The position numbers and the translations under genes are program-made. The notes under the pieces were generated by a model. That model was not told the origin of the DNA and did not search any database. It saw only the letters and a program-made list of their open reading frames with translations. This document shows, one piece after another, positions 56,778-64,000 of a DNA stretch of 64,000 nucleotides. Each line of letters opens with the position of its first letter. The first letter of the stretch is position 1. This DNA comes from Crocinitomicaceae bacterium (GTDB lineage: Bacteria; Bacteroidota; Bacteroidia; Flavobacteriales_D; Crocinitomicaceae): contig JBAYVD010000011.1 of NCBI GenBank assembly GCA_041674745.1, positions 62,216-126,215 of the forward strand, given 5' to 3'.

Positions 56778-56864
56778 GGAGGGATGGGTGAGTGGCTGAA
56801 ACCACCAGTTTGCTAAACTGACGTACGGGTAACTGTACCGCGGGTTCGAATCCCGCTCTCTCCG
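56778..56864 (+). tRNA. tRNA-Ser (anticodon GCT)
   Basis: Folded by hand. Acceptor GGAGGGA/TCTCTCC, anticodon loop TTGCTAA, long variable arm GTACGG-GTAA-CTGTAC, T-arm GCGGG-TTCGAAT-CCCGC. CCA is not encoded. Confidence 0.9.
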
Positions 56865-56904
56865 CATAAAACAAAGAAAATAGTTCGAAATATTTATTTT
56901 TTTC

Positions 56905-56934
56905 TTGCTATTTTCATTTTTAACAGTATCTTTG
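56905..56934 (+). promoter_or_regulatory. Candidate sigma-A promoter (TTG-N19-TATCTTTG) for tRNA-Pro
   Basis: Exact consensus spacing, 60 nt upstream of tRNA-Pro. Confidence 0.5.
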
Positions 56935-56994
56935 CACTCGCTTTGACAATCTAGCGATAGAAAATCAAGCGACAAAAGACGAACTTTTAGAGTT

Positions 56995-57068
56995 CGGGGT
57001 GTAGCGTAGCCCGGTATCGCGCCTCGTTTGGGACGAGGAGGTCGTAGGTTCGAATCCTGCCACCCCGA
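56995..57068 (+). tRNA. tRNA-Pro (anticodon TGG)
   Basis: Acceptor CGGGGTG/CACCCCG, anticodon stem CCTCG/CGAGG with loop TTTGGGA, T-loop TTCGAAT. Confidence 0.9.
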
Positions 57069-57072
57069 CACT

Positions 57073-57098
57073 GGGGAAGAGAAATCTTCCCCTTTTTT
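57073..57098 (+). terminator. Rho-independent terminator after tRNA-Pro
   Basis: GGGGAAGA-GAAA-TCTTCCCC followed by T6. Confidence 0.7.
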
Positions 57099-57125
57099 AT
57101 TTCCAATGGTTTGTAAAAAATCATT

Positions 57126-57177
57126 GGGCTTTATAGCTCAGTCCGCAGCGGCGGAAGCAACTGCCAAAGTTGCAGAG
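57126..57177 (+). pseudogene. Degenerate 5'-half copy of tRNA-Arg with its D-loop replaced by a 14-nt GC palindrome
   Basis: GGGCTTTATAGCTCAG + TCCGCAGCGGCGGA + AGCAACTGCC... aligns to tRNA-Arg positions TAGCTCAG/AGCAACTGCC. The upstream flank (TTGTAAAAAATCATTGG) also resembles the flank of the intact gene (TTGTAAAATGATTGG). There is no T-arm. Confidence 0.5.
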
Positions 57178-57190
57178 TTGTAAAATGATT

Positions 57191-57264
57191 GGCCCCGTAG
57201 CTCAGCTGGATAGAGCAACTGCCTTCTAAGCAGTAGGTCTTTGGTTCGAATCCAAACGGGGTCA
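57191..57264 (+). tRNA. tRNA-Arg (anticodon TCT)
   Basis: Acceptor GGCCCCG/CGGGGTC, D-arm GCTC-AGCTGGATA-GAGC, anticodon loop CTTCTAA, T-arm TTTGG-TTCGAAT-CCAAA. Confidence 0.9.
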
Positions 57265-57265
57265 C

Positions 57266-57293
57266 AAAAGAGGAAGCAACCGCTTCCTCTTTT
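57266..57293 (+). terminator. Rho-independent terminator after tRNA-Arg
   Basis: AAAAGAGGAAGC-AACC-GCTTCCTCTTTT. An identical copy lies at about 57622-57649. Confidence 0.65.
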
Positions 57294-57312
57294 CAGTTTA
57301 ACACTATTTTTT

Positions 57313-57570
57313 ATGACCTATTATTCATATGTGCTGCGCTCCTTGGAAAATGGAATGCTGTATAAAGGATCCACTGAAAATATCGTAAATCGACTAGCAA
57401 CACATAATTCAGGAAAAGTACGTTTTACCTCACGCCATTTACCTTGGGAATTAATTTTAGTAGAAGAATTCACAACCCGAGCGGACGCTATGAAACGCGA
57501 AAAATGGTACAAAACTGGAGTCGGAAGGGAATGGATTAACAATGAAATTCAAAACAGAGAAAATGGATAG
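57313..57570 (+). CDS. Small GIY-YIG nuclease family protein
   Basis: 85 aa: MTYYSYVLRSLENGMLYKGSTENIVNRLATHNSG....T....PWELI..EEF.T...A...E...K. The Slx1/UPF0213-like GIY..YIG core. The start at 57313 lies after the tRNA-Arg terminator, and the stop codon lies inside a tRNA-derived segment. Confidence 0.8.
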   Translation: MTYYSYVLRSLENGMLYKGSTENIVNRLATHNSGKVRFTSRHLPWELILVEEFTTRADAMKREKWYKTGVGREWINNEIQNRENG

Positions 57571-57694: not shown

Positions 57695-57958
57695 GATCAA
57701 ACGATCAAGTCTAAAAGTTGGGGATTACCATATTTAACACTTCGATTAAAATTCTTTCTTCCCCACAACATTTGATAGCGTTCTGCAATTTTACAGCTTT
57801 TTAGCATTTTTTTTAAGAAACCAATACAACTTGCGACTAAATTTGAACGTACGTAGATTGTGCTCCTAATTGATTCTAATAAATAAATCTTCTTCGATAT
57901 CACTTTTCGAAAACAATACGACTTGACGCAATTTTATCGGGTTAAAATTCAAATACTT

Positions 57959-58738
57959 ATGCTTAAACTAAAAGAAACTACGTTGTACTCTAGCAAGCAT
58001 TTAGACGTCCGATTCAATAAAAAAAATAGTTTATTCATTCAAGAATGGAATCACAATTTACCTGTTCCCTTGAACGAATTCAGAAATGAATTATTAGCCT
58101 TCAAAGAACTCATCAAAATTCACCGGCCCAAAAGCACTATCTGGCTGCAGGAGGATTTTTCAACCATCTTGAAGTTTGAAGACAACTTATGGATTGAAAA
58201 AAATGTCAATGAAGAGTGTCTCCAGTACGGTTTGAAAAAATGCGCGTTTGTGGTTGGGAAAAACGTTATGGCACAATTACATGTATTCAATTTCTTTGAT
58301 AAAGTTCAATCCTGCATTGCTCCAAGACATTTCTCAGAAAAGGACGAAGCTTTGAATTGGATTCTCTATGACGAGCTCACGTCCAAGGCAGGCGGTGACG
58401 AAATTCAAATTGAATATGGCGGTAAAACGGCGGATGGAAAAAGTCAATACACGTTCAAAACCAGTTCTAAAAACACGGAGGTCACGCTAAAATCGTTCAA
58501 TATATTACTGAAAGAGAATGCATTTATGAAAGAAAATGCCATTCGTTTCTTTTCATTAACCAATCGTGAAAAAGAAATTTTTCAATTGTATGCCAATGGT
58601 GCTAATTTTAAAACCATTGCAGCAGAATTGTTTCTTTCTGAACTTACAATCCGCACACACTGGCGGAATACGAAGAAAAAACTAGCTATTAAGAGCCTTT
58701 CCGATATTACGGATTACAAAAATTCATTTTTGCGCTAA
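57959..58738 (+). CDS. LuxR/GerE-type helix-turn-helix transcriptional regulator with unknown N-terminal domain
   Basis: C-terminus LTNREKEIFQLYANGANFKTIAAELFLSELTIRTHWRNTKKKL. Start set at the ATG at 57959. Confidence 0.78.
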   Translation: MLKLKETTLYSSKHLDVRFNKKNSLFIQEWNHNLPVPLNEFRNELLAFKELIKIHRPKSTIWLQEDFSTILKFEDNLWIEKNVNEECLQYGLKKCAFVVGKNVMAQLHVFNFFDKVQSCIAPRHFSEKDEALNWILYDELTSKAGGDEIQIEYGGKTADGKSQYTFKTSSKNTEVTLKSFNILLKENAFMKENAIRFFSLTNREKEIFQLYANGANFKTIAAELFLSELTIRTHWRNTKKKLAIKSLSDITDYKNSFLR

Positions 58739-59738: not shown

Positions 59739-59812
59739 GGTTTGGTAGTTCAGTTGGTTAGAATACCTGCCTGTCACGCAGGGGGTCGCGGGTTCGAGTC
59801 CCGTCCAGACCG
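59739..59812 (+). tRNA. tRNA-Asp (anticodon GTC)
   Basis: Acceptor GGTTTGG/CCAGACC, anticodon stem CCTGC/GCAGG with loop CTGTCAC, T-arm GCGGG-TTCGAGT-CCCGT. Confidence 0.9.
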
Positions 59813-59860
59813 CAAAACGCTCACGTTAAAAGATAAGCCTCTATGGCTGGAGGACTAGAA

Positions 59861-60301: not shown

Positions 60302-60308
60302 AAATTGG

Positions 60309-60336
60309 AGAGAGTCATGAAATTGGCTCTCTTTTT
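60309..60336 (+). terminator. Terminator-like hairpin
   Basis: AGAGAGTC-N8-GGCTCTCT followed by T4. It lies inside the 5' extension of the Abi ORF as drawn in the track. Confidence 0.45.
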
Positions 60337-60421
60337 AGTTATTAAAAATGCATATTTCATATGTTGGTTTTCTTTATTATTCAATGAAAAGTATATTTGT
60401 AAAAAAACCAGAAATATCTCT

Positions 60422-61429
60422 ATGTCTGAATTCAAAAAGAATAAACCTTCAAGAACTCCTAATCAATTAATAGCCAAGCTTAAGGAGAGAGGATTAACAA
60501 TCAACGATGAACTTGAAGCAACAATCGCTATCCGTACTTATGGATATTTTAGATTATCTGGATATTTTGGACCTTTACAAAGCTCTAAAGACACCTTTTA
60601 CCCTGGTACCACATTTAAAGATATATTAAGATTGTATCATTTTGATAGAAAACTAAGGAGAATAACTTCCCAAGCCCTGAAATCTATCGAGGTTTCAATC
60701 AAATCCCACTTAACCAACATAATGTCAGATGAATATGAAAGTGATTGGTATGAGAACGAAGAAATTTTCATGACTGAGAAAAAGAAACGAATATACATTA
60801 TTAAGCATCGTTGTGAGAAGGATGAAATTATTGATTATCAGCAAGAAGTAGATATTGGCATGTACAGCCTGCTCAAATCAAGTATAGCAAATTATATTGA
60901 CAGAAATTCAGAATCTGATTTCATTAAAAAATTTAAAAAAGCCTACGGTTCAGATTCTACTGTTCCTTCATGGATGATGATGGAATGTATTTCGTTTGGA
61001 GAGTTGAGTAGACTTTATTCATTAATTAAACCAAGCACAACTGAAACAAGAACAATTGCAAAATATTTTGGAGCACTTACAGCTGATAATTTTACATCCT
61101 GGTTGTATGGTTTTGTAGTTTTACGAAATGCATGTGCCCACCATGCAAGAATATGGAACAGGATGACTATATTGGATTTAAAATTTCCTCATAAAAAAGA
61201 ATACAAATTCATATCAATAGATGAAACAAAATACAAAAGTAAGTTTTATGGTATTTCGGCCTGCATATTAAAATGTTTGTCAAAAATATCCCATGAAGAA
61301 TATGAAACGTTCAAAACAGAGTTTTATAACTTGACTGAAGAACATGGAATTGTTCTGTCTGCTATGGGCTTTCCAACTACTCTAGAGCCCCATGATATAT
61401 GGAAAAAAATGGAAATAGAAACTATTTAA
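60422..61429 (+). CDS. Abi_2 (AbiD/AbiF-like) abortive-infection family protein
   Basis: YGYFRLSGYF, LY.FDR.LR, FGELS.LY and LRNACAHHARIWNR, the family's R..xxAHH motif. Start set at MSEFKKNK (60422), downstream of the hairpin. Confidence 0.8.
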   Translation: MSEFKKNKPSRTPNQLIAKLKERGLTINDELEATIAIRTYGYFRLSGYFGPLQSSKDTFYPGTTFKDILRLYHFDRKLRRITSQALKSIEVSIKSHLTNIMSDEYESDWYENEEIFMTEKKKRIYIIKHRCEKDEIIDYQQEVDIGMYSLLKSSIANYIDRNSESDFIKKFKKAYGSDSTVPSWMMMECISFGELSRLYSLIKPSTTETRTIAKYFGALTADNFTSWLYGFVVLRNACAHHARIWNRMTILDLKFPHKKEYKFISIDETKYKSKFYGISACILKCLSKISHEEYETFKTEFYNLTEEHGIVLSAMGFPTTLEPHDIWKKMEIETI

Positions 61430-61432
61430 AAT

Positions 61433-61500
61433 AAAGAAGCCTCTCGGTTTGAGCGATTCTCTTCGTTAAAAGAGTCTAAGCTTGAGAGGCATTATTAATA
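61433..61500. repeat. Hairpin repeat, copy 1 (probable minus-strand terminator)
   Basis: Shared arms AAAGAAGCCTCTCGGTTTGAGCG ... CTTGAGAGGCATTATTAAT with outer stem GCCTCTC/GAGAGGC and inner stem CTCTT/AAGAG. Confidence 0.6.
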
Positions 61501-61551
61501 CAAATGTATAAACTATTGGCCAATAAATCAAATTATGAAAAATTAATTTAA

Positions 61552-61618
61552 AAAGAAGCCTCTCGGTTTGAGCGGTTCAATGTATTTCAGAACCTATACT
61601 TGAGAGGCATTATTAATC
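61552..61618. repeat. Hairpin repeat, copy 2 (probable minus-strand terminator)
   Basis: Same outer arms as copy 1. The core differs but is again self-complementary (GGTTC/GAACC). On the minus strand the hairpin is followed by TTCTTTTT. Confidence 0.6.
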
Positions 61619-61741: not shown

Positions 61742-62620
61742 TTAGATTATACATTGGAGTCCAAGGTCCACATGAGGCAAGCTACATTTTTCAGGAAGTT
61801 TCAAACTGTCATCAAAAATAAAAACTTCTTTTCCTTTTTGGACAGTAGCTGCGCTGTACTGTAAGTCATATATGAAATGTCTTCTGTCAGTATATAACTC
61901 CAAAATTTCAGGAACTCCATCATAAGATAATACCCATGGGTGATTTATTCTATTTTGAATGGCAATCGCCAAATCTGCATGGTCATTCTTCTTATAGGAA
62001 TTCAAATAAAGTTCACTTGCCTTATTGTAATATGGAGGGTCGAGATAAACCAACGTATTATTGTCTAAATTAGGAATGTAATTATCAATAAAAGTCTCTC
62101 CGTCAAGATTACTTATATGGATATTGTCTTTAAAAAGACTTATTAATTCAATTCGCTGAATGAGGTCATTTCTATTGAAACGAGCATCCATTTTATAATT
62201 ACCAGTCTGATTTAATCCCCCAATTACACCAGCAGAAAGTACGCCAGACCTATTAACTCTATTTAAGTAAAAGATACTAAAACCCAGGTCAAATAAATCA
62301 TGTTGAGTTGGATTACGAACGATTTGTTGCTGTCTCCTCCATTCTTCAATAGTCATTGATGCGCTAAATATTTTACGACAGAGTTTTTCTGGATGATTTA
62401 TAATTGAGTGCCAAAAAGCATAAATCCCAAGGTGAGAATCGTTCAAGTGAACGTTAGATATTTTCTTTTTAATTAATAGTTCCATTGCTACTCCCGCACC
62501 ACCTGCAAAAGGCTCGACATAGTGACCAGTAATTGAGTTAGCTTCAAGAATTTCGTCTATGAATGGAGTTAATCTTTGTTTGCCACCTGGGTATCTTAAA
62601 GGTGTTATGAATCGTCCCAT
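61742..62620 (-). CDS. Dam-class (D12) N6-adenine DNA methyltransferase
   Basis: PLRYPGGKQRL, EPFAGGAGV (motif I), FYLNR..RSG and YLDPPY (motif IV). 292 aa. Confidence 0.88.
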   Translation of the reverse strand: MGRFITPLRYPGGKQRLTPFIDEILEANSITGHYVEPFAGGAGVAMELLIKKKISNVHLNDSHLGIYAFWHSIINHPEKLCRKIFSASMTIEEWRRQQQIVRNPTQHDLFDLGFSIFYLNRVNRSGVLSAGVIGGLNQTGNYKMDARFNRNDLIQRIELISLFKDNIHISNLDGETFIDNYIPNLDNNTLVYLDPPYYNKASELYLNSYKKNDHADLAIAIQNRINHPWVLSYDGVPEILELYTDRRHFIYDLQYSAATVQKGKEVFIFDDSLKLPEKCSLPHVDLGLQCII

Positions 62621-62627
62621 ATTTTAA

Positions 62628-63986
62628 TTAATTCATTGCTTGAAGCAAAGGGTATATATTACTAAATAATGTACAAATGTCAGAAGGAATGATTGAGAAA
62701 GATGGGTTATGGACCAACTGATTCATTGAAGTTACCGAGAGTATTTTATTTGGATTTGTTATTTCAACATGTGCACCGTGCAAGACCCTCGTCATTGGTA
62801 AATTTTTCTTATTTGCTGTCAAATGGTTGGTGGCATCAGTTAAAAGTTCTGAAAGAGTTTTTTCTTTACCATTAGGCTTTGTGGTAGATAACGAGTTGTC
62901 ATCACAATAAGCTTTTGCAGAAATTTCAAACGTGCTTCTAAGTAGAAAGCAAAAGGCTATAGGATTACTGCTCACTTTTAATTTAAGCATTTCATCCCTC
63001 AAAGTTACAACTTTAGGTCTATTCACAGTTGGAACAAACTGTTTTAAAAGAGAATTTACATGTTTTTGAGTATTTGTTGCAGCAGATTTAGGTGATGGAA
63101 CTGCAGCTGGAATAACTAGCGTTGGTGTTCCGTTTATTGGAGATGTTGTGGGAGATGGCTGGGGCACTGATGGATTAGTTGAATTTGTAGATACACTCGA
63201 TTGAGGGGATGGTCCTGACGAACTAGTCGGATTAGTTTCAGGCTGTGAAGGTGCAACTGCATCTGAAATAGTTATTGGCTCAAGAGGAGGAACTGGTGTA
63301 AATCCGCCAAAACCAACAGTAAAATCACTTTTTTCATCTCTTATTTGTTTAAACCCTAAATTTCCAAGGCCAATAGACAAAAGAATCTCTTCTAGTTTAT
63401 CTCTATCCGAAATATTTGGGTAAGCTTTAACAAGGTCAGTGGATGAATCACATTTAAAGCGAAAAAGCAATTTTGGTATTGTTGCATCAAGTACACTTAA
63501 ATTGTAATCACCAGCCCAACGTTCTTTTTGTTGAGCATTGATATTACGTCCATTCTCAATATATTTCTCAAGTAAATTCAACCCTTCCTCCTTAGCTTTA
63601 TTTATATCTCTATTATGTCTTGCTTTGGCAACTGAAGTCCATGGGTCTCTGCTAGCTTTATCTCCTTTACCATGCGTAAGCGCAACAATACGTTCGACCC
63701 TTTCTGATTCATTTTCTTCGTAAACTGAACACGGTACAGATTTGTTTCTGCTTTTCCAAGAATTATCAAGTGATAAAATTTTCGCTTTTGTAGATTCTGG
63801 AATTTGAAATTCATTAATTTTATGCAAGCCAAGAATCAATTTCATTGCTGCAATTCTGCGGTTTCCTTCTTTAACAATTATTTCTTTTCCTTGTTTCTGA
63901 CAGATAATATTCTCGGTCGGAATATATTCATCCTCTAAAAGACTGTCAATTATTCCTCCGAAACGATTTGGATTAACTGCAATCAT
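62628..63986 (-). CDS. ParB-N (ParB/Srx fold) domain protein with P/S/T-rich linker and uncharacterised C-terminal domain; 5' end possibly outside the window
   Basis: AVNPNRF...IIVKEGNRRIAAMKLILG resembles the ParB N-terminal box. Residues 231-307 or so are Pro/Ser/Thr-rich. I cannot assign the C-terminal 145 or so aa to any family. The reading frame stays open from 63986 to the window edge. The stop is 7 nt upstream of the Dam start. Confidence 0.6.
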   Translation of the reverse strand: MIAVNPNRFGGIIDSLLEDEYIPTENIICQKQGKEIIVKEGNRRIAAMKLILGLHKINEFQIPESTKAKILSLDNSWKSRNKSVPCSVYEENESERVERIVALTHGKGDKASRDPWTSVAKARHNRDINKAKEEGLNLLEKYIENGRNINAQQKERWAGDYNLSVLDATIPKLLFRFKCDSSTDLVKAYPNISDRDKLEEILLSIGLGNLGFKQIRDEKSDFTVGFGGFTPVPPLEPITISDAVAPSQPETNPTSSSGPSPQSSVSTNSTNPSVPQPSPTTSPINGTPTLVIPAAVPSPKSAATNTQKHVNSLLKQFVPTVNRPKVVTLRDEMLKLKVSSNPIAFCFLLRSTFEISAKAYCDDNSLSTTKPNGKEKTLSELLTDATNHLTANKKNLPMTRVLHGAHVEITNPNKILSVTSMNQLVHNPSFSIIPSDICTLFSNIYPLLQAMN

Positions 63987-64000
63987 AGCGTGAATGGCTC

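Follow-up and report, generated by a model that had tools for sequence, protein, structure and literature searches.

A ParB-fold protein and a D12-class methyltransferase encoded side by side in a Crocinitomicaceae genome probably form a PD-lambda-5 anti-phage defence operon

What is the role of a ParB-fold protein encoded directly upstream of a DNA methyltransferase, at a locus where no restriction enzyme can be recognised? This question is raised by two neighbouring genes at the end of a 64,000-nucleotide (nt) stretch of a Crocinitomicaceae (Bacteroidota) genome (GenBank contig JBAYVD010000011.1, positions 62,216 to 126,215; the whole stretch is hereafter called the window). The upstream gene and its product are referred to here as A, and the downstream ones as B. 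An earlier reading of the window from its letters only (the sequence-only reading) had proposed the pair as a novel modification-linked defence or mobile-element module, and knew of no named system with such an architecture. Our analysis places the locus, as a new member, in a system that already has a name, experimental validation and a published architecture. Judging from profile and homologue matches, A and B together constitute, with a probability of roughly 85%, a PD-lambda-5 anti-phage defence operon of this genome. Coordinates below are those of the window, except where they follow the handle of another sequence. One of these, L001, is an extended copy of this contig, and subtracting an L001 position from 68891 gives the position in the window.

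Both genes lie on the minus strand, as do all parts of them described below. A (PD-Lambda-5_A family member) occupies 62628–64000 and B (PD-Lambda-5_B family member, a predicted alpha-class or D12 DNA amino-methyltransferase of 292 amino acids) occupies 61742–62620. They are separated by a 7-nt spacer (TTAAAAT on the coding strand; 62621–62627), as the sequence-only reading had it, and this spacing, which is similarly short in 64 of 68 related loci described below, is consistent with a single operon. It had also been noted that the reading frame of A is still open at the window edge. Indeed, the frame continues upstream of the ATG at 63986 without a stop codon as far as base 64000, and extension of the contig places the true start 29 codons past base 64000, the window itself holding residues 30–485 and the stop codon. 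The full-length protein has 485 residues and is 100% identical to a protein of a public assembly (P0001) from a Crocinitomicaceae metagenome-assembled genome.

The evidence that carries the assignment comes from the PADLOC profiles. Full-length A matches the PD-Lambda-5_A profile PDLC03997 with 617.9 bits (E-value 3.1e-186), residues 1–485 aligning to profile positions 1–490 of 491, and the part within the window alone scores 573.7 bits. It also matches 23 further PD-Lambda-5_A profiles, several of which span both the N- and C-terminal domains, and its match to PDLC03998 covers the full length (E-value 3e-44). B, in turn, matches the PD-Lambda-5_B profile PDLC04018 with 387.9 bits (E-value 6.8e-117; positions 1–279 of 291). 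The PADLOC run on the locus, which the sequence-only reading had suggested as a check, thus argues against novelty, the pair being called PD-Lambda-5_A/_B. A DNA search initiated with a gammaproteobacterial homologue of B recovered relatives in E. coli. For example, a lambdoid prophage of E. coli O121 RM8352 encodes a 'DNA adenine methylase' (43% identical to B, E-value 5e-78) adjoining a 467-residue 'ParB/Srx family N-terminal domain-containing protein', which aligns with P0001 in both the N-terminal (E-value 7e-5) and C-terminal (E-value 5e-6) domains. PADLOC assigns this prophage pair to PD-Lambda-5_A (PDLC03998, 248 bits, full length) and PD-Lambda-5_B. The phage protein family phrog_9592 likewise matches P0001 over its full length (E-value 1.3e-23).

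PD-lambda-5 is one of the 21 systems that Vassallo et al. 2022 (PMC9519451) obtained from E. coli isolates through functional selection. Its two genes come from ECOR7 and are listed as 'ParB/HEPN, methyltransferase' in Table S1 of that study, in which the system gave broad protection, altering the plating of nine of ten test phages, and was interpreted as a compact restriction-modification (RM) plus abortive infection (Abi) system (PMC9519451). Cloning required a host without the mrr region, a locus of modification-dependent restriction (PMC9519451), and this requirement fits an active DNA-modifying enzyme. HHpred assignments reported there are ParBc for the N-terminus of A (96.4%), a weak DUF4145/HEPN match for its C-terminus and MethyltransfD12 for B (99.9%) (PMC9519451). 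ParB-HEPN fusions and operons of ParB, HEPN and methylase genes had already been catalogued in a 2013 survey of HEPN domains (PMC3710099). Later papers go no further than counting PD-lambda-5 in censuses or placing it among RM-related and HEPN-containing systems, and we found no mechanistic study of it in the literature searched. The defence role suggested by the sequence-only reading is therefore supported, since both proteins match profiles of an experimentally validated phage-defence system. With PD-lambda-5 the window pair shares the A-then-B gene order, the sizes of the products (~490 and ~290 residues), a ParB N-domain followed by a C-domain that may be HEPN-like, a D12 methyltransferase, end-to-end profile matches for both proteins and a mobile or island location. 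It differs in that its A belongs to subfamily PDLC03997 whereas the O121 prophage protein belongs to PDLC03998, the two being ~23–28% identical in their alignable parts. It also differs in residing in a Bacteroidota chromosomal island rather than a prophage, and in an A that carries a long Pro/Ser/Thr-rich tether and a replaced HEPN arginine.

An AlphaFold2 model of full-length A, built on 64 homologues, has a mean predicted local distance difference test score (pLDDT) of 83.6 and consists of two confident blocks, residues 1–270 and 335–485, with a disordered stretch (274–333) between them. The N-terminal half (residues 30–261 in the window; 63303–63998), with pLDDT mostly above 90, comprises a predicted nucleotide-binding core of the ParB/Srx fold followed by a conserved helical region. 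Foldseek searches with this half rank CDP- or CTP-bound ParB (PDB identifiers 6sdk, 7bnr and 7bnk) and Noc at the top, followed by sulfiredoxin (PDB identifier 6ky4; TM-score 0.62 normalised to the target) and SbnI, with probabilities of up to 1.0. The ParB/Srx fold of the modelled core is established by this ranking. The alignments with ParB span ~250 columns, and since their TM-scores are low (0.38–0.40), the resemblance of the helical region to the ParB DNA-binding domain is only suggestive.

The equivalent of ParB Box II (the P-motif) is E73-G-N-R-R77 (63855–63869), which is invariant in the 64 homologues and in 60 genome-encoded homologues. The arginine of this box is needed by ParB-fold proteins for binding nucleoside triphosphates (NTP), be it CTP, ATP or GTP (bioRxiv 10.1101/2025.10.10.680097). 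Of the two motifs that the sequence-only reading had taken as a ParB/Srx box, KEGNRR (63855–63872) corresponds to Box II, whereas NPNRF (residues 38–42) is not Box I; the invariant Box-I-like motif is LDLKNFR (residues 14–20), which is encoded past the end of the window. At the position of Box III, A has A-L-T-H-G-K-G. Invariant residues are dense in this half (H138, K140, R146, W149, R156, H157 and R159 among the 64 homologues), and four of them, H138, K140, R146 and W149, belong to a loop following Box III which is invariant yet flexible in the model (pLDDT below 50 at residues 140–149). Pfam models of ParBc, helix-turn-helix (HTH) and ParB C-terminal dimerisation domains found no match in A at E-values up to 1, and neither did those of DUF262 and DndB. 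When PDB chains were searched with a sequence profile of A, the low-complexity linker produced artefacts and there were no other matches. A nuclease fold of the PD-(D/E)xK, HNH, GIY-YIG or phospholipase D (PLD) type was not detected in A by Pfam, PADLOC or Foldseek.

The Pro/Ser/Thr-rich linker described by the sequence-only reading is real and extends over residues 262–334 (63084–63302), with pLDDT below 50 at 274–333. Across the 64 homologues it is 42–84 residues long (median 67.5), is of low complexity and is composed to 88% of Pro, Ser, Thr, Ala, Gly, Asn and Gln. Its column identity is 0.30, and that of the domains on either side is 0.73 and 0.78. The tether is thus conserved as a feature and not as a sequence. 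No tandem repeat was found in the DNA beneath it.

The C-terminal domain, which had been recognised as a separate unit without an assigned fold, spans residues 335–485 (62631–63083) and folds confidently when modelled alone (pLDDT 85.8; predicted TM-score 0.81). Its best PDB match is the HEPN protein 2q00_A (TM-scores 0.50/0.61), followed by 2hsb (0.50/0.59), 1o3u, 7ae6, 1wwp and 1wol, none of them statistically significant, and its best match among the viral models of BFVD is a 'HEPN domain-containing protein'. The domain is therefore described here as HEPN-like, a consistent lead rather than proof. Two motifs stand out. The first is a conserved helix, L-R383-S-x-F-E387 (62925–62942), in which R383 and E387 are invariant and which has counterparts in other PD-Lambda-5_A subfamilies (LLRALFE, LLRAIFE) and in the E. 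coli O121 protein (FLLRALLE). The second, T452-S-M-N455-Q-L-V-H459 (62709–62732), appears to be a degenerate HEPN-type motif that retains the Asn and His and has another residue in place of the arginine. Both N455 and H459 are invariant in the 64 homologues, T452/M454 is found in 58 of 60 genome homologues, and in the other two an arginine at position 452 yields R-x6-H. R383, E387 and H459 are kept even in distant PD-Lambda-5_A subfamilies. A comparison by hhalign of the C-domain profile with the neighbouring AbiD protein, a bona fide HEPN protein, revealed no relationship, though a single sequence set against a shallow profile makes this a weak test.

B matches the D12 class family of Pfam (PF02086; E-value 1.1e-22, 81.4 bits against a gathering score of 22) and contains the motifs PLRYPGGK (62579–62602), EPFAGGAGV (motif I; 62489–62515) and DPPY (motif IV; 62030–62041). 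Motif I (FxGxG) precedes motif IV, as in the D12 alpha class. The D12 assignment and motifs of the sequence-only reading thus stand. Its description of B as a canonical Dam-class adenine methyltransferase, however, is overstated, because B scores 68.8 bits against the NCBIfam 'dam' model (TIGR00571), under the cut-off of 114.85 bits, and because its nearest solved structure is M.CbeI (PDB identifier 7m6b; E-value 3.7e-21), which according to its depositors is an alpha-class N4-cytosine methyltransferase likewise carrying DPPY. By these comparisons B is not an orthologue of Dam. B also strongly matches PADLOC profiles of type II methyltransferases (PDLC03358, E-value 4.8e-92). As a separate observation, GATC (observed/expected 0.61) and GGCC (0.65) are the most under-represented 4-bp palindromes of the window. 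Their avoidance may reflect restriction pressure, attributable to no particular system, and a target cannot be named from it.

Are the two genes linked elsewhere? A pattern scan restricted to one genome per species retrieved 68 related loci from at least eight phyla, spanning Bacteroidota, Beta- and Gammaproteobacteria, Planctomycetota, Verrucomicrobiota, Chlorobiota, Ignavibacteria, Cloacimonadota and Acidobacteriota. A methyltransferase homologue is present in all 68 and lies directly downstream on the same strand in 64, so the co-occurrence that the sequence-only reading had asked about holds well beyond this genome. B is more conserved than A across these loci (52–72% as against 40–53% identity). 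At the 64 canonical loci, the genes closest to the pair on either side encode 112 proteins with 121 Pfam families, each with at most four members, and no recurrent third gene (ParA, integrase, nuclease or other) was found among the families listed for these proteins. Since no flanking family recurs, the A-B pair, as read from these neighbourhoods, is a self-contained mobile module whose genes move together across phyla. Searches of A by tblastn against 72,556 plasmids and 50,697 phages yielded one and four matches, respectively, all of them weak and partial matches to the N-domain, including gp98 of the P2-like phage Wphi and one Mesorhizobium plasmid.

The four loci among the 68 that depart from the canonical layout are informative; two of them, with A-only genes, are described further below. 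In Orbus hercynius (L049, 7506–9173) an AAA_15/GajA/PtuA-like ATPase is inserted between A and B, and in a P2-like prophage of E. coli RM14723 (L072, 3815–6375) an ATPase of the same type takes the place of the ParB/HEPN protein at the P2 hotspot, beside a methyltransferase of PD-Lambda-5_B type. These pairings suggest that the methyltransferase clade of B partners with different effectors. In a Massilia locus (L065, 2615–5739), A is set apart from a PD-Lambda-5_B methyltransferase by the genes for a second ParB-N protein and an unknown protein. This locus and phage Wphi (L071, 96–2331; gp98 and gp96) have a related three-gene layout consisting of a ParB-N protein of ~400 residues, an unknown protein of 340–370 residues and a methyltransferase. 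The methyltransferase of Massilia is of the D12 class, and that of Wphi is a cytosine methylase encoded on the opposite strand. The ParB-N protein of this layout has PDC-M38A as its best PADLOC match and also matches the PD-Lambda-5_A N-domain, and the 340–370-residue protein has no PADLOC match.

Several observations weigh against the assignment of the pair to PD-lambda-5 or against the functions that it would imply. Membership is drawn from the PADLOC profiles and the O121 homologue, not from the ECOR7 proteins (RCQ13837.1 and RCQ13838.1), and phage resistance has been demonstrated for the E. coli system only. The nuclease activity of PD-lambda-5_A proteins is putative. The Pfam ParBc and HEPN models fail to match A, all HEPN matches of the C-domain by Foldseek have non-significant E-values of 0.69–2, and the arginine of the canonical HEPN motif (Rx4-6H) is absent from A. 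NTP hydrolysis by A is not assured, because THGKG replaces the ENLQR of ParB Box III. B may produce either N6-methyladenine or N4-methylcytosine. Lastly, two loci, in Aquitalea aquatica (L046, 5977–10875) and in an Undibacterium metagenome-assembled genome (L069, 104–3047), contain a window-type A without a methyltransferase of its own. A second PD-lambda-5 pair of another subfamily lies alongside in both (A' with PDLC04013 as its best match, plus a PD-Lambda-5_B methyltransferase), and here two effectors may share one methyltransferase, or one effector gene may be decaying.

How might the pair work? We tentatively favour, at a little under even odds, a restriction-modification-like logic in which B would self-mark host DNA and A would act on unmarked DNA. 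B would methylate a short motif on the host DNA as the self-mark. A, probably dimeric through its HEPN-like C-domain, would bind NTP by its ParB-fold domain and engage DNA. On unmethylated DNA of an incoming phage it would then either cut the DNA or fire a toxic activity of the C-domain, stopping the infection. A ParB-fold effector would thereby take the place of a classical restriction endonuclease. The proposal of the sequence-only reading that the linked methylase gates the ParB-like protein is plausible. Given that the HEPN arginine is replaced in the subfamily of the window, its C-domain may serve dimerisation or regulation rather than act as an RNase. The ParB-HEPN fusions and operons of Anantharaman et al. 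2013 (PMC3710099), predicted by comparative genomics, show the same domain combination in an RM-like context. They include the Saro_3948 type and the MAE_28990 type, in the latter of which HEPN and ParB are separate genes, and A is likened to them by its domains only.

The strongest competing account, possible though clearly less probable than this logic, is a plain type II-like RM system, in which A would be an unconventional restriction endonuclease of the ParB fold conferring direct immunity, with a C-domain for dimerisation only and no RNase or Abi arm. In its favour, the canonical HEPN arginine is absent, T452/M454 being retained almost throughout, the HEPN fold match is weak, B matches a type II methyltransferase profile and the linkage of A with the methyltransferase is tight. 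With type II RM systems the pair shares horizontal movement and the tight linkage of a methyltransferase with a putative effector that targets DNA. Two observations tell against it. R383, E387, N455 and H459 are invariant in the C-domain, with the Arg, Glu and His kept in distant subfamilies, which suggests a functional site rather than a mere packing surface. Also, B is unusually conserved across phyla and more so than A, unlike the diversifying specificities of typical type II systems. From the effectors of classical type II systems A differs in having a ParB/Srx NTP-binding fold and a HEPN-like domain instead of a PD-(D/E)xK, HNH, GIY-YIG or PLD nuclease fold, and the reading of A as a classical restriction enzyme is rejected.

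A more speculative possibility, to which we give about one chance in five, is that A acts as an NTP-gated DNA clamp of the ParB type serving as an immune sensor. Its HEPN-like C-domain would dimerise and its N-domains would close on DNA upon NTP binding. The disordered tether would give the ring its reach, and loading, or firing of the R383/E387/H459 site, would occur only at sites left unmarked by the cognate methyltransferase. If true, such restriction would follow a principle that none of the classical RM types uses, and it would extend the biology of the ParB CTP switch to immunity. NTP-binding domains of the ParB/Srx fold are found in other defence systems linked to DNA modification, namely DndB and the DUF262 proteins GmrSD and BrxU, and BrxU is a weak Foldseek match of A (rank 25). 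GmrSD differs from A in having an HNH/DUF1524 partner domain in place of a HEPN-like one, and in targeting modified DNA without a cognate methyltransferase.

The pair could instead be a selfish addiction module resembling toxin-antitoxin systems, in which A would be toxic wherever the methyltransferase is lost. The pair would then persist through post-segregational killing, with phage defence as a by-product. Such behaviour is known from classical RM systems, and the A-B pair combines tight linkage with horizontal movement into unrelated contexts. We nevertheless regard this as improbable, as the protection given by the E. coli member extends to nearly all of the test phages and as A-only genes occur in the Aquitalea and Undibacterium loci, albeit with a second PD-Lambda-5_B methyltransferase nearby. 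Addiction is in any case compatible with defence and not exclusive of it.

Less probable still, indeed very unlikely, is a partition or DNA-organising protein of the ParB type, belonging to a mobile element and accompanied by an orphan or regulatory methyltransferase, with no part in defence. The N-half of A does resemble CTP-bound ParB and Noc across ~250 aligned columns. Box II (GxRR) and the order of N-domain, helical region, flexible linker and C-terminal domain also echo the ParB of ParABS systems and Noc. On the other hand, A has no ParA partner, neither in the window nor in the 4.8 kb recovered beyond base 64000, nor recurrently in the 64 loci, and integrases and nuclease families are equally absent from the window and that 4.8 kb, in agreement with the sequence-only reading, which had seen no restriction-enzyme-like, ParA-like or integrase gene. 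No match of A to a partition protein with an adjacent ParA, or to a known restriction-enzyme fold, was found. No plasmid or prophage backbone is seen around the pair in the window and the extended contig, and the plasmid and phage searches returned weak partial matches only. Box III of ParB is not conserved in A, the Pfam models of ParB domains are without a match, the linker is much longer and the C-domain is HEPN-like rather than of the ParB dimerisation fold. Lastly, the E. coli family member gives phage defence.

The least likely account is the categorically new and unnamed modification-linked defence or mobile-element module of the sequence-only reading: Pfam and NCBIfam searches of A give nothing meaningful and no family, and its database copies are all annotated 'hypothetical protein', yet both proteins match PADLOC profiles of a named and validated system end to end, which refutes this account in its strong form, the architecture appears in Vassallo 2022 (PMC9519451) and in the 2013 HEPN survey (PMC3710099), and PD-Lambda-5 is routinely called in genome censuses. 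The discovery value of the locus is accordingly small, as a standard defence-finder run would label it PD-Lambda-5 beside AbiD. Its residual value lies in experimental handles on the mechanism of PD-lambda-5. These are a domain map with the invariant EGNRR, the H138-K140-R146-W149 loop, the tether with its conserved length and the R383/E387/N455/H459 site; a self-contained two-gene module distributed over at least eight phyla; a methyltransferase clade nearer to an N4-cytosine enzyme than to Dam; and natural variants, in which A stands alone next to another pair or a methyltransferase of this type is coupled to an AAA ATPase.

The PD-lambda-5 pair lies in a small low-GC island. It shares this region (GC content 0.27–0.32 as against 0.35–0.44 in the flanks), beside a tRNA-Asp gene, with an AbiD gene, which bears out the AT-rich island next to an Abi gene that had been noted earlier and speaks for the assignment. 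The AbiD gene (60305–61429, plus strand) encodes an abortive-infection protein of the HEPN class (Pfam Abi_2, E-value 5.4e-50; PADLOC AbiD, E-value 5.4e-60). It is found in the flanks of none of the 68 other loci and, by this comparison, is a separate defence gene of the same island, outside the PD-lambda-5 module. No direct repeat of the att type matching the 3' end of tRNA-Asp was found; the sole repeat touching this tRNA does so at the 5' end and appears fortuitous. The convergent intergenic region between B and AbiD (61433–61617) contains, by repeat search and folding, two copies of a hairpin element (GCCTCTC...GAGAGGC followed by a T-run; L001 7274–7339 and 7392–7458) ~119 nt apart. Their folding energies are -18 and -16.9 kcal/mol (z-scores -2.9 and -1.9), and they are probably duplicated bidirectional terminators. 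A scan of the operon for sigma-70 promoters and terminators performed no better than on shuffled sequences, the sigma-70 model being ill-suited to Bacteroidota promoters, and an Rfam search of the window found four tRNAs and nothing else.

Three of these tRNAs, Ser(gct), Pro(tgg) and Arg(tct), form a cluster within 56778–57570, and the fourth, tRNA-Asp(gtc), borders the island at 59739–59813. The TTG start listed for a GIY-YIG open reading frame (57241–57570) overlaps with the end of tRNA-Arg. At 57923–58738 lies a gene for a 271-residue protein with a C-terminal HTH of the LuxR/GerE type and an N-terminal region without a family match; its weak PADLOC match (CARF3--CARF, E-value 2.2e-04) covers the HTH part only and is probably not meaningful. 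On the other side of the pair, past base 64000, a gene at L001 325–2358 encodes a 677-residue protein with AAA+ ATPase, ClpB_D2-small and Peptidase_M41 domains, an N-terminus unlike that of classical membrane-anchored FtsH and a weak PADLOC match to DolB (E-value 4.6e-05). The interval between this gene and A holds an open reading frame for a lipoprotein-like protein of 299 residues together with three small open reading frames without a family.

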